Source: a virus. Taken from it: DNA of 64,000 bases. The stretch covers positions 36,598 through 100,597 of IMG/VR virus record IMGVR_UViG_3300031951_000060; one strand, given 5' to 3'. Of this stretch, positions 31,226 to 55,890 are shown piece by piece. The notes beneath the pieces were generated by a model. It saw only the letters and a list, made by a program, of their open reading frames with translations, was not told where the DNA came from and ran no database searches. The position numbers and the translations under genes are program-made. Each line of letters begins with the position of its first letter. Position 1 is the stretch's first letter.

Positions 31226-31254
31226 AAAACAAAATGAATAACAAAGGAGAAAAA

Positions 31255-32382
31255 ATGAATTCATTTAAGAAGATCGCTCTTGGCATGGTTGCAGCCATGA
31301 CACTGAGCACACTCGTAGTGACACCTGCAAGTGCCAATACCGTTTCTGTAGACGTAACAACAGAAATTTCTGGCGCAGGTACTGCAGCCTCACCATTCAC
31401 AGTTAAGGTTCCATCTGATAACGTAGTAAGCGTTGCAGATACCTCAACTGTTACAAACAACGAAGCACTTCTTATCACCGCTACAGTTGTTGCTGGAACA
31501 CCAGTAACATTTACTGCAGTTGGTGCTGGAACACGCCTCGTCTCTGCAATTGGTTCAACAGTTAATGCATCTGCTGGATCATCATCAATCACAGTCACAC
31601 CTGCTTCAACAACAGCGACTGTATATGCATATACAACAACTACTGCTGCATCTGCGGTTACAGTTTCTGTAACTGGTGCAAGCACAACAATTTATCTTAA
31701 GGGTGTTGCAGGTCCTGCATATGAACTTAAGATGTCAATCCCTGCTTCAGGAAATATTTCTGGCAAGGTAACTGCAACTCTTGATGTAGCAGATATTTTC
31801 GGCAACGCTGTTGCTGATACAGTAACTGTTACTACTCTTGGTGGCGCAACTGCTGGAACTGTAACTGCTGATGCTCTTGTAACAGGTCGTTACACATCAG
31901 AGATTTCGCTTCCTGCTGCTGCTGGAACTGTTGCTGTTGGAGCATCTATTGTTGCACCAACCTCTGTTCCAACAATTAAGTTGGCAACAACTTCTCAGAC
32001 TGCAATCGTAACAGTATCTGATCTTGCAACTGCACTTGCTGCAGAACGAGCAGGTCGTGCTGCTGATAAGGCTGCTGCTGATCAAGCACTCTCTGCTGCT
32101 CTAGCAAAGGCTGCTGCTGATGCTGCAACTGCTAAGGCTGCTGCTGATGCTGCTGCTATTACTGCTGCTGCTGAAATTGCTAAGTTGAAGGCTGATGCTG
32201 TAACTGCTAAGGTTGCTGCAGATAAGGCTCTCGCTGATGCACAGGCTGCTGCTAAGGCAGAACTTGATAAGGTCAAGGCAGATAATGCTAAGGCTCTTGC
32301 TGACTTGAAGAAGGCTTTCAATGCACTCGCTAAGAAGTGGAATGCAAAGAATCCAAAGGCAAAGGTTACACTTGTTAAGTAA
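31255..32382 (+). CDS. Secreted Ala/Thr/Val-rich Ig-like surface (S-layer-like) protein
   Basis: Signal peptide MNSFKKIALGMVAA..ASA, beta-rich body, Ala coiled coil, basic C-terminus; RBS AAGGAG. Confidence 0.65.
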   Translation: MNSFKKIALGMVAAMTLSTLVVTPASANTVSVDVTTEISGAGTAASPFTVKVPSDNVVSVADTSTVTNNEALLITATVVAGTPVTFTAVGAGTRLVSAIGSTVNASAGSSSITVTPASTTATVYAYTTTTAASAVTVSVTGASTTIYLKGVAGPAYELKMSIPASGNISGKVTATLDVADIFGNAVADTVTVTTLGGATAGTVTADALVTGRYTSEISLPAAAGTVAVGASIVAPTSVPTIKLATTSQTAIVTVSDLATALAAERAGRAADKAAADQALSAALAKAAADAATAKAAADAAAITAAAEIAKLKADAVTAKVAADKALADAQAAAKAELDKVKADNAKALADLKKAFNALAKKWNAKNPKAKVTLVK

Positions 32383-32446: not shown

Positions 32447-32872
32447 GTGATTAAATTGGTTAACCCAGTTCCAGGTAAAAAAATTACCACAAAGTATCGT
32501 ATTCCAGGAAAGCATTGGTCTTGCGGATATCACACTGGAGTAGACTATGCAGCACCTGCAGGTACAGAGGTTGTTGCTTGCAAAGGAGGCAAAGTTTTAG
32601 AAGCCAAAGACGGAGTATCTTTTGGTGGCTCGTATGGTCTCTCAGTTATTATAGATCATGGCAAAGGTATGAAAGCAGTATATGCACATCTATCAAAAAT
32701 TTCTGTAAAGTCTGGAGATAAAATAAAGGCTGGACAAAAAATAGGTGAGATTGGTTCAACAGGAAATAGTACTGGACCACATTTACATCTTGAAGTAAGA
32801 ACTTCTCCGTGGAGATATGCTAATAAAGACATTGATCCTGAAGTTATAATTAATTTTGAACCTAATGTTTAA
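32447..32872 (+). CDS. M23 family peptidoglycan endopeptidase
   Basis: HTGVD, YAHL, STGPHLHLE. Confidence 0.92.
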   Translation: MIKLVNPVPGKKITTKYRIPGKHWSCGYHTGVDYAAPAGTEVVACKGGKVLEAKDGVSFGGSYGLSVIIDHGKGMKAVYAHLSKISVKSGDKIKAGQKIGEIGSTGNSTGPHLHLEVRTSPWRYANKDIDPEVIINFEPNV

Positions 32873-32921: not shown

Positions 32922-34553
32922 ATTAAAAAATTAATAAGAATATTGTCAGCGTCACTACTGGCTCTTGGCTTCAACTTATGGATTCCAGAAAACGCTAACG
33001 CAACCTGTGTAAATTTTATACAATCACAAACCATATCAGCAGCATATAATGGTGATGCCGAACCTACAGTGCATCATATGGATACTTGCTCAGGTGACGA
33101 TGTATCTTATCAAATACCAATTGCAACTACCGTGACTTTTGACGGGGTACAATATGAAAACATTTACGCTACAACTAACTCAGTAATTACCTTTGGTCAA
33201 CCTGATCCCACATACTGGGCATATCCTAATACACCATCTATCTCCCTATACTCAATGGACTGGTTTCCAGGAGTAAGCAATACATCTGGTTTGGATATAT
33301 ATTATTCAGAGGGCGGATTTCAATTAAATCTAAATATGGTCCCTTTTGGTAACTATGGGGCACAACCAAGTACAGTAAATATATTAGTGGCTATTACTAA
33401 TACTGGCGGTTTAGCGGTGTCCTATAGTTATCAAGGTCCTGAATATCAAAATCTTAGAACAGGGGTAAGGCTTCACAATGGAGATATTGTTTCTCTTGAG
33501 GCCTGGGGTGCCACACAGGTTTCTCCTAATTCACCTGCCCCTATATTGCAGGCAGAGCCTATTCCAGAGCCTTCCCCTACACCTACTCAGCAGCCATCTC
33601 CAGAACCCTCTCCAACGCCCACAGAAGCCCCTATAACGCCCGAAGAACAGCAAGAGCAGGTAGCAGAGGCAGCGCAACTCGCTAATGAAATATCAGACTT
33701 AAATAATCTTATTGCTTCGATAAATGGTGATGAACCAGCAGAAGAAGTTACTCCAGAACCAGACCCTACACCAACACCTGACTCTACAGAAGAACCAGAT
33801 TTACCTGAACCTGATGTTGAAGTTGATCCAGAGATTATTACTCCAGAGGATCCAAGATTCCCTGATGATGAGCAAACTGAACCAGAAGATCCTACTCCTT
33901 CTCCAAGCCCTGATACCACAGATGGTGGCAGCGAAGAGACTGATCCAACTCCAGAGCCTTCAGAAGAGCCAACATCTCAGCCAGAGGAAACAGATCAAGG
34001 TCAAGAGCCTGAACCTGAGCAACCTGTTGAGGAAGAGCCTATAGTGCCAGCACCAGATAATAATGACACAGATGATAGTAATCCAATTTCAGCAGATGAA
34101 CTTAATAAGTTAAATAAACTAATTGGACAAAACGATGCTAAGTTGGCTGCCGAATTATCAAACATGCTAACCGAATTATCTCCAAAAGAGGAAGAAGCAG
34201 TAGCAGAAAGTCTTGGAATTAAGGCAGAAGAAATAGCAATAATTGCAGAAGCAATTAAAGACAACCCAGCAATAGCAGTAGCATTTGTAGAGTTTGCGGG
34301 TAGAGCAGAAGAAAACGCAGATTTCCTAATGCCTTACACATTAGCGGATGCTATTACTGAAGTACAAACAGAAGCATTTTTAGCAGACCCACTTGGGGTA
34401 TTAACAGATATAGATTTTGAAACATTGCTAAGTCCTACAGAATGGGGTAAAGATATGACAGATGACCAAAGAGAAAAGGTTCAAGAGGTAGTTATTCCTG
34501 TCATTTTGGTAGGAAATATTGTTAGTTCGGTTATGTCACTAAGGAGGTTATAA
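32922..34553 (+). CDS. Exported Pro/Glu/Thr-rich protein with C-terminal membrane anchor
   Basis: Signal-like N-terminus, PEPSPTPT stalk, hydrophobic C-terminus; start uncertain (ATT 32922 vs TTG 32943). Confidence 0.65.
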   Translation: MKKLIRILSASLLALGFNLWIPENANATCVNFIQSQTISAAYNGDAEPTVHHMDTCSGDDVSYQIPIATTVTFDGVQYENIYATTNSVITFGQPDPTYWAYPNTPSISLYSMDWFPGVSNTSGLDIYYSEGGFQLNLNMVPFGNYGAQPSTVNILVAITNTGGLAVSYSYQGPEYQNLRTGVRLHNGDIVSLEAWGATQVSPNSPAPILQAEPIPEPSPTPTQQPSPEPSPTPTEAPITPEEQQEQVAEAAQLANEISDLNNLIASINGDEPAEEVTPEPDPTPTPDSTEEPDLPEPDVEVDPEIITPEDPRFPDDEQTEPEDPTPSPSPDTTDGGSEETDPTPEPSEEPTSQPEETDQGQEPEPEQPVEEEPIVPAPDNNDTDDSNPISADELNKLNKLIGQNDAKLAAELSNMLTELSPKEEEAVAESLGIKAEEIAIIAEAIKDNPAIAVAFVEFAGRAEENADFLMPYTLADAITEVQTEAFLADPLGVLTDIDFETLLSPTEWGKDMTDDQREKVQEVVIPVILVGNIVSSVMSLRRL

Positions 34554-36064: not shown

Positions 36065-36598
36065 ATGACCTGTATTGCAGTAGTTCGTGATAAAGTAAAT
36101 AATAAAATTTGGATGGCTGGCGATAGAGGCGTATCCGATGATAATACTATTAATGTATGCTCAAGTTCCAAGATATGGAAAAAAGACGGGTATTTATTTG
36201 GGTATGCTGGCTCTATGGATGGCGATAGGTTAAAGCATCTATTTGTTCCCCCAACATTTGATGGCAGGGGCAGCATAGACAAATTTATGTATAGTAAATT
36301 CCTTAAAGCACTTAGAAAATTTTATGAGGAGTGGTGGGTTGATACCTCATCGTCATCAGATTTTGGCATGCTGATTTGTGTCAGAGGTAAAATATATGAA
36401 CATAATGCAGGAGATATGTCTTTAACACAATATGATCAAGACTATTTAGCAATGGGTTCTGGTGGGGATTTAGCATTAGGCTCTTTATATTCAACACAAA
36501 AGCAAAAGGATGCAAGAAAAAGAGCAGTATTAGCAGTTAACGCTGCCCTTGCACATTCTATGTCTTGCAAAGGCCCTATTGACATTCTAAGCATTTAG
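36065..36598 (+). CDS. Ntn-hydrolase, proteasome beta/HslV-like protease
   Basis: N-terminal Thr (MTCIAV), AGDR, KI, GYAG, AMGSG. Confidence 0.8.
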   Translation: MTCIAVVRDKVNNKIWMAGDRGVSDDNTINVCSSSKIWKKDGYLFGYAGSMDGDRLKHLFVPPTFDGRGSIDKFMYSKFLKALRKFYEEWWVDTSSSSDFGMLICVRGKIYEHNAGDMSLTQYDQDYLAMGSGGDLALGSLYSTQKQKDARKRAVLAVNAALAHSMSCKGPIDILSI

Positions 36599-54838: not shown

Positions 54839-54851
54839 GATCCTATTTTAG

Positions 54852-54924
54852 CACCCCTGGTTGGATTCGAACCAACGACAAACGGATTAGAAGTCCGCTA
54901 CTCTATCCACTGAGTTACAGGGGT
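54852..54924 (-). tRNA. tRNA-Arg (TCT)
   Basis: ACCCCTG/CAGGGGT, GCGGA-CTTCTAA-TCCGT, TTCGAAT. Confidence 0.93.
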
Positions 54925-54930
54925 ATATTG

Positions 54931-55308
54931 TTATGTATATACTATCTTACTGATGCCAGACTTAACAATTACATCATAACAAAATTCACAAGGTCTTGAT
55001 AGTCTTGTTTGGCCAGATCTATTAACTCTTGCAATGTATATTTTTGCACCCTTTAGCCCAGAAACCTTTTTAATAGCATCAACTTCGGCATGAATATGAG
55101 CATCTGCAATGATATCTTCTTTATTATTATTCAATACTTGAGGATGGTTCCTTACCTTATTTATACCAGTAGATATAATTCTTCCGCCACGAACAATGAT
55201 TGCTCCGTGCTTGTATCTTCTAACCTGTGATGATCTTGCCAGATTAGCAGCAATAGCCAGATATCTTTCTTCTGACTTAGAGAAATTACTTACAACTTCC
55301 TTCGGCAT
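54931..55308 (-). CDS. Zn-dependent cytidine/dCMP-type deaminase
   Basis: HGAII, G.N, HAE, SRPCEFC. Confidence 0.85.
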   Translation of the reverse strand: MPKEVVSNFSKSEERYLAIAANLARSSQVRRYKHGAIIVRGGRIISTGINKVRNHPQVLNNNKEDIIADAHIHAEVDAIKKVSGLKGAKIYIARVNRSGQTRLSRPCEFCYDVIVKSGISKIVYT

Positions 55309-55343
55309 TTACAACACTTACCTTATCTTTTAAATAACTTACG

Positions 55344-55416
55344 TACCCCTGGTTGGATTCGAACCAACGCTTGCACAATTTTAAGTCGTGTGCCTCTACC
55401 ACTGGGCTACAAGGGC
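55344..55416 (-). tRNA. tRNA-Leu (TAA), short variable loop
   Basis: GCCCTTG/CAGGGGT, CACGA-CTTAAAA-TTGTG, TTCGAAT. Confidence 0.88.
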
Positions 55417-55583
55417 TTGGGTGCCAGTCACGAAGTCCGTTTCTACGGAAGAATCAACTACTGGCTCTGCTCCTTAGATGCTGTCTGCTTGGGCCTGTTC
55501 GACACAGGTTATTCAACGACTACCACCAGCGTAATTTTCAGGGCAGTTGTACTCATCGAGAGGTCGAATTCCTGATGAGCCTT
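55417..55583 (-). ncRNA. Candidate structured ncRNA between tRNA-Met and tRNA-Leu
   Basis: GC-richer non-coding 167 nt with four hairpins: GCTCATC/GATGAGT, CTGCC/GGTAG, CCTGT/ACAGG, GCCAGT/ACTGGC enclosing TCCGT/ACGGA. Confidence 0.5.
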
Positions 55584-55584
55584 G

Positions 55585-55658
55585 TAGAGCAGGTAGGACT
55601 TGAACCTACGATAACCGAATTATGAGTTCGGGGCCTTGACCAACTTGGCTACTGCTCC
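55585..55658 (-). tRNA. tRNA with CAT anticodon (elongator Met or Ile2)
   Basis: GGAGCAG/CTGCTCT, CCGAA-CTCATAA-TTCGG, TTCAAGT; lacks initiator GGG/CCC. Confidence 0.9.
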
Positions 55659-55667
55659 TTAAACCTA

Positions 55668-55829
55668 CTATTCGTAATCTTCTTCTATACCGTCTTCGTT
55701 CCAATCATCATGAAAACGAGGGGAGTCTTGAAACATCCCCCAGGTAGGCTGATCTTCTACCATATCTTGTCCAAACATAGATGAATATGTGTCGTTATAC
55801 ATAACTGCTTCTGCAAATGATCTGCTCAT
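55668..55829 (-). CDS. Small acidic hypothetical protein
   Basis: RBS GAAAGG, downstream of promoter. Confidence 0.5.
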   Translation of the reverse strand: MSRSFAEAVMYNDTYSSMFGQDMVEDQPTWGMFQDSPRFHDDWNEDGIEEDYE

Positions 55830-55860: not shown

Positions 55861-55890
55861 ATTATAGAACAAGGCAAGGTAGATTGTCAA
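55861..55890 (-). promoter_or_regulatory. Sigma70-type promoter driving the minus-strand tRNA cluster
   Basis: TTGACA-18-TATAAT on minus strand. Confidence 0.7.

Follow-up and report, generated by a model that had tools for sequence, protein, structure and literature searches.

The transfer RNA (tRNA) clusters of phages have been known for fifty years to carry extra stable RNAs, such as species 1 and 2 of phage T4, to which ROOL and GOLLD were later added; we know of no function for any of them. The T4 RNAs (rnaC and rnaD; 139 and 119 nucleotides (nt)) are small and stable, lie head to tail with tRNA genes, after tRNA-Arg, and are matured together with the tRNAs. ROOL and GOLLD are found near tRNA islands, one GOLLD lying downstream of a Met-tRNA, and a covarying loop contact in ROOL that was first read as tertiary was then shown by cryo-electron microscopy to be quaternary (PMC12286853). 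Here we describe an RNA whose genomic setting follows the same logic as that of the T4 RNAs. It lies in a 64,000-nt stretch of viral DNA (IMG/VR record IMGVR_UViG_3300031951_000060, positions 36,598 to 100,597), the whole of which we call the window, and it occupies the 167 nt at 55417-55583 on the minus strand, so that RNA nucleotide i corresponds to window position 55584-i.

An earlier reading of the window made from its letters alone (the sequence-only reading) had proposed that the gap between tRNA-Met(CAT) and tRNA-Leu(TAA) is filled by a structured RNA. ARAGORN and Infernal agree that the spacer is exactly this gap, with tRNA-Met upstream (55584/5-55658, minus strand) and tRNA-Leu downstream (55343/4-55416, minus strand), and comparative covariation confirms the structure. 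The spacer is also, as had been said, richer in G+C than the flanking genes (~0.49-0.51 versus 0.28-0.40). Exact 21-24-mers found a single near-identical relative in IMG/VR (L004), in which the spacer is as conserved as both tRNAs (~94% identity) and the outer flanks diverge at once. Further copies came from related records recruited through their polymerase, over which BLAST and covariance models were run, and from anchored degenerate patterns applied to IMG/VR and JGI metagenomes.

In all, 16 distinct homologous sequences were collected from uncultured freshwater phage contigs, counting the window itself. They fall into two subtypes: type A, with 12 members including the window, and type B, with four (L107/L166, L161, L163 and L250). 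All variants are 162-179 nt long, and there is one copy per genome. The two types have little primary sequence in common, yet each is detected by the model of the other: type B reaches 22.4 bits (E ~4e-5) on the type A model (R1), and the type B model (R2), which added one copy to the set, finds a type A copy with an E value of 4e-6. For comparison, the window sequence scores 194 bits on R1. A 1-nt indel separates 94%-identical copies of the spacer and excludes that it is coding. The plus-strand open reading frames (ORFs) of 61-90 amino acids that cross it were rejected as genes, being antisense to the tRNAs that they traverse and interrupted by the same indel.

Folded on its own, the window sequence is unremarkable. 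Its minimum free energy is -49.5 kcal/mol (z = -1.78), and 9 of 200 shuffled sequences fold as well, so the case for structure rests on comparative evidence. RNAalifold, applied to four and then to seven sequences, predicted 42-43 pairs, and 15 of these have changed on both sides in a way that preserves pairing. In the alignment of the 12 distinct type A variants, standard pairs fill 96.3% of the pair cells, against 27-43% when the partners are slid by one to three columns, and 20 of 48 pairs have changed on both sides. None of 500 shuffles of this alignment matched the observed paired fraction or covariation score. The structural conservation that the sequence-only reading had made its own touchstone is thus present among the homologues. 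When the variants are folded individually, the main domains appear in every one, with single helices dropping out of the minimum free energy structure in a few. Two invariant G.U pairs (4-33 and 58-106) would become C.A on the opposite strand, which places the RNA on the same strand as the tRNAs.

The fold consists of three domains with open ends: a 5' hairpin (P1), a long irregular middle hairpin and a 3' hairpin (P4). P1 (nt 4-33; 55551-55580, minus strand, as are all the features of the RNA) has an outer stem of 7-8 base pairs (bp), a 3' bulge, inner AG/CU pairs and the loop (A)AUUCGA; 4 of its 10 pairs show double compensatory changes, and eight stem sequences occur among type A. The linker J1/2, ACAA (nt 34-37; 55547-55550), is invariant in type A and AAAGAUA-like in type B. 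The middle arm then begins with P2, continues through an asymmetric internal loop and three short covarying helices, and ends in P3. The 5' strand of P2, CUGCCCU (nt 38-44; 55540-55546), pairs with nt 110-117; its 3' strand, AGG-A-GCAG, together with the preceding UA, spans nt 108-117 (55467-55476), and the motif CUA.G is invariant in 15/15 aligned variants. In every variant the internal loop has 11-12 nt on its 5' side (in the window GAAAAUUACGCU; nt 45-56; 55528-55539) and an invariant UA on its 3' side. The 5' side starts with GAAA, invariant in 16/16 variants, and the remainder varies. Beyond it, the distal arm (nt 57-107; 55477-55527) is built from GGUG/CAUC, GUC/GAC, UUGA/CCAA and the P3 hairpin, CCUGU-GUCGA-ACAGG (nt 76-90; 55494-55508). 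All four sub-helices covary, and in P3 three of the four counted pairs are doubly changed.

P4 (nt 119-161; 55423-55465) is built on an invariant GCCA/UGGC base with an equally invariant A on either side (A-GCCA/UGGC-A), followed by a variable interior and an inner CCGU-NRAA-ACGG hairpin. The base as a whole is found as GCCAGU/ACUGGC, GCCAAC/GUUGGC, GCCAGC/GCUGGC and GCCAAU/AUUGGC. Of the interior (55429-55459 in the window) there are three or more alleles unrelated to each other, GAUUCUUCCGU..ACGGACUUCG, AUAUUCGCCGU..ACGGGUAGCG and, in L250, CCUU-AACCAA-AAGG. These alleles have recombined relative to the rest of the RNA: one copy (L096) has the window's P4 together with the L004 internal loop. 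A pairing between the internal-loop sequence and the P4 allele was considered and dropped, the correlation being broken by that copy. After P4 comes a 3' tail, ACCCAA (nt 162-167; 55417-55422), of which the first A is invariant and the remainder pyrimidine-rich and variable.

Type B has the same architecture with nearly every helix rewritten, P1 being GUAUAGAU/AUCUAUAC and P2 GUUAUACC/GGUAUAAC. It retains GAAA, CUAGG, AGCCA and UGGCA, and its P4 base GCCAAC/GUUGGC is present also in a type A member (L086). Segment lengths are almost fixed: 22-24 nt from the P1 loop motif K1, described below, to the internal loop, 33-36 nt from the start of that loop to the P3 loop motif K3, and 42-44 nt across P4. 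The family can be defined by P1; P2 with an asymmetric GAAA(N8)/UA loop; a fold-back arm carrying at its apex a 6-mer that can pair with the P1 loop; an A-GCCA/UGGC-A P4; and a length of 160-180 nt, all of which are found in the window.

These comparisons bear directly on the helices put forward by the sequence-only reading. Five of its six local helices are backed by covariation or conservation, namely GCUCAUC/GAUGAGU, CCUGU/ACAGG, GCCAGU/ACUGGC, (U)CCGU/ACGG(A) and an inner AGG/CCU that is conserved as AG/CU. The sixth, CUGCC/GGUAG, is replaced: CUGCCCU pairs instead with AGG-A-GCAG, and in type A this helix (CUGCCCY/RGG-A-GCAG) shows U-A to C-G and C-G to U-A exchanges. A proposed long-range 7-bp pairing, CAACUGC/GUAGUUG, which was to form a pseudoknot or switch, also lacks support: its G-U end forms part of P4, where it covaries, and type B does not conserve J1/2.

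The main tertiary feature is instead a predicted 6-bp loop-loop pairing that was absent from the earlier reading. Its two partners are UUCGAC in the P1 loop (K1; nt 16-21; 55563-55568) and GUCGAA at the apex of P3 (K3; nt 81-86; 55498-55503), and they are complementary over 6 nt in 16/16 variants. In type A, UUCGAC is matched by GUCGAA or by GUCGAG, the latter with one U.G pair (12/12); in type B, CUGAAC is matched by GUUCAG (4/4). Three of the six pairs differ at both positions between the types, and three are identical. The 22-24 nt from K1 to the internal loop correspond to ~21-24 nt of arm beyond it (33-36 nt less the 12-nt loop), which would allow the two loops to kiss intramolecularly. 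These nucleotide counts suggest that the arm could fold back along a P2-P1 stack.

The element is also a discrete gene: relatives have exact empty sites, its tRNA neighbours differ and one copy stands alone. Among complete genomes, the nearest by polymerase (G002; 95% identity) has the exact empty site, Met-3 nt-Leu; another (G022) has Met-3 nt-Arg, whereas G040 has Met-RNA-Arg; and two metatranscriptome contigs show an empty Met-AAA-Leu joint. Upstream of the element, family members have tRNA-Met, Asn, Gly, Glu or Asp; downstream they have tRNA-Leu, Arg, Asp, Trp or Gly, or an ORF, and adjoining tRNAs nearly always lie 0-20 nt away. At three loci representing two variants (L160/L162 and L164), an ORF takes the place of the downstream tRNA, with a Shine-Dalgarno sequence 13 nt away. 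The stand-alone copy (L094) has no tRNA on its 8.6-kilobase (kb) locus; a -10-like TAGGAT (TANNNT-like) box lies a few bases upstream of it and a T16 run begins 8 nt after P4. No target-site duplication or terminal repeats were found at the borders of the element. Taken together, the absence of an Rfam match, the noncoding character, conservation like that of the tRNAs, covariation, and precise presence or absence at tRNA borders support the earlier suggestion of an undescribed noncoding RNA of a tRNA operon.

Other long spacers of tRNA arrays proved to be different. A 177-nt gap between tRNA-Trp and tRNA-Leu(TAG) in the complete relative G022 (L113:1738-1914, minus strand) has no R1 match and a fold z of -0.21, and a 189-nt gap after tRNA-Met in a distant phage, G054 (L115:1226-1414, plus strand), holds a Shine-Dalgarno sequence and a ~47-codon ORF; both were rejected as family members. 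One array that carries a type B RNA has a second spacer of ~114 nt between tRNA-Trp and tRNA-Glu (L107:1318-1431, minus strand; G014).

The IMG/VR record from which the window is taken is a 100.6-kb phage record, estimated to be 93% complete, that encodes a DnaE-type polymerase, DnaB, a primase, a UvsX-like recombinase, a large terminase and many auxiliary genes. Its closest cultured relatives are the Streptomyces phages BillNye and Sham (Stanwilliamsviridae; ~55% polymerase identity), neither of which has an R1 match. Because the carriers are distant relatives of Streptomyces phages with DnaE polymerases, an actinobacterium is the probable host. Most occurrences of near-identical DNA are in freshwater metagenome runs; three runs carry the label fungus metagenome. 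Beyond these phages, two narrow family patterns had no match in 185,579 GTDB representative bacterial and archaeal genomes, blastn of type A and type B found nothing among GenBank phages, and the neighbouring deaminase, used as bait, led only to distant, irrelevant loci. That neighbour is a dCMP/cytidine deaminase-family gene wedged between tRNA-Leu and tRNA-Arg, in the region 54851-55416 (minus strand) that includes tRNA-Leu. In L085, about 1 kb (L085:1742-2799) lies where the window has the deaminase gene, and in L004 tRNA-Ile directly follows tRNA-Leu. The tRNA arrays are thus reshuffled gene by gene, with protein genes inserted between tRNAs.

Our preferred reading, which we hold with moderate confidence, is that the element is the gene of a stable, compact, trans-acting noncoding RNA of ~160-170 nt, belonging to an undescribed family and cut out by tRNA-processing enzymes. 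Transcription would start from a sigma-70-type promoter at 55890-55861 (TTGACA-18-TATAAT; 55861..55890, minus strand), which precedes a 53-codon ORF without family match (55668-55829) and then the tRNA/RNA block, and would yield one transcript of small ORF, tRNA-Met, RNA, tRNA-Leu, deaminase and tRNA-Arg. Such co-transcription is suggested because the promoter matches the consensus at 12/12 positions and lies upstream of the RNA with no terminator-like site before it; on the minus strand, none was found from the promoter down to 54600. The 5' end of the RNA would be freed by endonucleolytic processing of the tRNA-Met 3' end, by RNase Z or an equivalent, a route proposed because CCA is not encoded there; it is missing from the flanking tRNA genes as encoded. 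The 3' end would be freed if RNase P cuts at the 5' end of tRNA-Leu, leaving a product of ~167 nt. This two-cut release, which the sequence-only reading had also envisaged, is deduced from established tRNA processing and the T4 precedent. It cannot be the sole route, because L094 has no flanking tRNA and L160/L162 and L164 are followed by an ORF.

In the released RNA, the asymmetric loop would turn the long arm back along the P2-P1 stack, and the loops would kiss, locking a rigid, nuclease-resistant fold; the P1 and P4 hairpins and the locked loops should together protect the molecule. The RNA would most likely act in trans, presenting the GAAA/UA loop and the A-GCCA/UGGC-A base to an RNA-binding factor of host or phage. 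A possible role is that of a decoy or sponge for an enzyme of tRNA or RNA metabolism or of defence.

Several observations weigh against this reading. The loop-loop pairing exists in only two covariation states and so represents effectively one evolutionary switch, and the pairing could be intermolecular instead of intramolecular. The RNA is dispensable and patchily distributed: besides the window's own record, one of eight searched related records that are at least 90% complete carries it, and seven do without. Metatranscriptome contigs from two studies (X16 and X20) contain family members over P4 and the 3' half, a weak hint of expression; they cover the element only in part, come mostly from relatives and show no RNA ends, and such contigs from RNA libraries could be contaminating DNA. 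As to partners, genes for Ro/TROVE, RtcB and a CCA-adding enzyme are absent from the phage genome. A 382-amino-acid and a 536-amino-acid protein encoded after the terminase occur in all long type A carriers and are absent from two complete non-carriers, and the 382-amino-acid protein (31234-32382) was accordingly considered as a partner. It was rejected, since four complete genomes have the protein without the RNA, and the co-occurrence is lineage or module noise.

These two genes lie on the plus strand (31234-32382 and 32943-34553) between the large terminase and the lysis genes, with an M23 peptidase gene (32447-32872) between them, and neither product has a significant Pfam match (best E 0.1-0.6) or a PHROG match. 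The 382-amino-acid protein is 95% identical in a phage with 78% polymerase identity, is absent from the closest complete relative and has at least 400 IMG/VR matches. It has the look of a module for accessory or host-range functions that is passed on horizontally.

If the loops of P1 and P3 paired between molecules rather than within one, the RNA could assemble head to tail into dimers, rings or larger RNA-only structures, much as the packaging RNA of phi29 assembles through its two hand loops and ROOL and GOLLD through quaternary kissing loops. Two complementary, covarying loops in a single molecule are the signature seen in ROOL, and ROOL and GOLLD likewise adjoin tRNA islands (PMC12286853). 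P1 has ~10 bp and the middle arm ~23 bp plus loops, so an intramolecular contact needs a sharp bend; on the other hand, the strand lengths are matched across the asymmetric loop in both subtypes (22-24 versus ~21-24 nt), as a fold-back requires and an open assembly need not. The RNA is, moreover, far smaller than ROOL or GOLLD and matches none of the Rfam models for ROOL, GOLLD or the packaging RNA (pRNA) of phi29, and a pRNA-type role in packaging is unneeded in a phage with a classical large terminase. We regard self-assembly as unlikely on this evidence. Similarly speculative, and given the same low weight, is the idea that the tRNA operon yields a minimal RNA-only closed oligomer of the ROOL/GOLLD or pRNA kind, or alternatively a rigid inhibitor or decoy of a host defence enzyme that processes or cleaves tRNAs. 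Were either self-assembly or the decoy true, the question of why phages maintain elaborate RNAs next to their tRNAs could be studied in a small and tractable system.

A role in cis, as a processing or folding insulator of the tRNA operon or as a riboswitch or attenuator for neighbouring tRNAs or downstream genes, would fit the position of the element, nearly always within 0-20 nt of tRNAs, the Shine-Dalgarno sequence and ORF 13 nt beyond the L160/L162/L164 copies, and the terminator-like P4 and T-run before an ORF in L094; a kissing loop with a conserved asymmetric loop also resembles riboswitch aptamers, such as that of the lysine riboswitch. We nevertheless consider it distinctly improbable. 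The downstream neighbour varies among five tRNAs, an ORF and a terminator, the upstream tRNA varies too, in close relatives the same two tRNAs, Met and Leu, mature although only 3 nt separate them, and there is no conserved alternative pairing that could serve as an expression platform, the switch of the sequence-only reading not being conserved. The same precise presence and absence at tRNA borders, together with the patchiness among close relatives and the differing neighbours, might instead reflect an insert that is selfish or in decay. It would be a small mobile element based on RNA, perhaps with a ribozyme, or what is left of tRNA genes, whose T loop the UUCGA of P1 recalls, and its structure would promote only its own spread or have no use. 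The element, however, shows no target-site duplication, terminal repeats or ribozyme family match and occurs once per genome; it has no cloverleaf; and the patchiness is not specific to the element, because tRNA genes in the same arrays are shuffled likewise. Compensatory changes have maintained the helices across two deeply diverged subtypes, which implies that selection acts on the fold. This is the least probable of the explanations.

The family adds a small and sharply defined member of ~165 nt, with helices backed by covariation or conservation, to the RNAs of tRNA clusters. Its two natural loop alleles amount to a ready-made compensatory experiment, and nature supplies near-isogenic genomes with and without the gene as well as one free-standing copy with a promoter-like box and a T-run. 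It thereby provides a practical system for asking what RNAs of tRNA arrays do, whether their maturation depends on tRNA-processing enzymes and whether loop contacts form within or between molecules. Adding the family to RNA libraries would stop such spacers from being read as empty.

How, finally, does the RNA compare with known ones? As the earlier reading had anticipated, it matches no described family: in Rfam 15 the spacer has no match at the gathering score or at E<=10, and four diverse homologues have none at E<=1. ARAGORN and RF00005 report only the two flanking tRNAs, and the fold, with open ends and three separate hairpins, is not a cloverleaf. On the plus strands of those tRNAs (55343-55416 and 55584-55658) there are sub-threshold matches to Plastid-ycf2 (RF04354; 37-38 bits versus 65.7), a model that evidently picks up reverse-complemented tRNAs. 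No transfer-messenger RNA (tmRNA) was found in the window by ARAGORN, nor any Rfam tmRNA match, and the models of small ribozymes (hammerhead, twister, pistol, hatchet and hepatitis delta virus-like) have no match even at E<=10. YrlA (RF02553) does not match the element, and the 100.6-kb genome has no TROVE domain in a search in which control genomes gave matches. A sub-threshold YrlA match elsewhere (L085:2811-2943, plus strand; 32 bits versus a gathering score of 69) spans tRNA-Arg and tRNA-Asn; it is almost certainly artefactual, produced by the adjacency of these two tRNAs. A 2023 catalogue of 8,495 candidate RNAs of 29-151 nt from IMG/VR (PMC10690425) might contain a fragment of the family.

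Individual likenesses are nonetheless instructive. Y RNAs are noncoding, lie near tRNAs in some phages and have tRNA-like loop-loop contacts; they differ in the long 5'/3' closing stem that binds Ro, of which the present RNA has no counterpart. In the lysine riboswitch, an internal-loop motif turns a helix back so that its loop kisses that of the adjacent helix through 6 bp. The likeness is one of architecture only, for the present RNA has no P1-closed multi-way junction, Rfam match or consistent downstream gene. The pRNA of phi29 (RF00044; 117-174 nt) is similar in size and also has two complementary loops that covary among phages. Those loops pair between molecules on the portal, in phages whose genomes are protein-primed and whose packaging ATPase is small, and pRNA has a 5'/3' closing helix; the RNA described here has open ends, comes from a phage with a large terminase and has no Rfam match.

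The closest parallels are those of the tRNA clusters themselves. ROOL and GOLLD are structured RNAs of phages and prophages, often beside tRNA islands, in which kissing loops supported by covariation are central. They differ in scale, with 500-800 nt or more assembled into 8- and 14-mer cages against ~165 nt here, and the present RNA matches neither Rfam model. With T4 rnaC and rnaD it has a common context, not common ancestry, as there is no similarity of sequence or structure: R1 run over the T4 tRNA cluster with filters off gave a best score of 7.2 bits (E 0.063), from a hit on the opposite strand that lies outside the annotated intervals of rnaC and rnaD. Moreover, rnaC is closed by its 5' and 3' ends and finishes in a tRNA-like T arm (CCGGGUUCGAAUCCCGG), whereas in the present RNA the ends are open, three hairpins stand side by side and a loop-loop contact is predicted. 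Overall, the RNA family is new, and the kind of system to which it belongs is known: phage tRNA clusters that carry stable RNAs besides their tRNAs.

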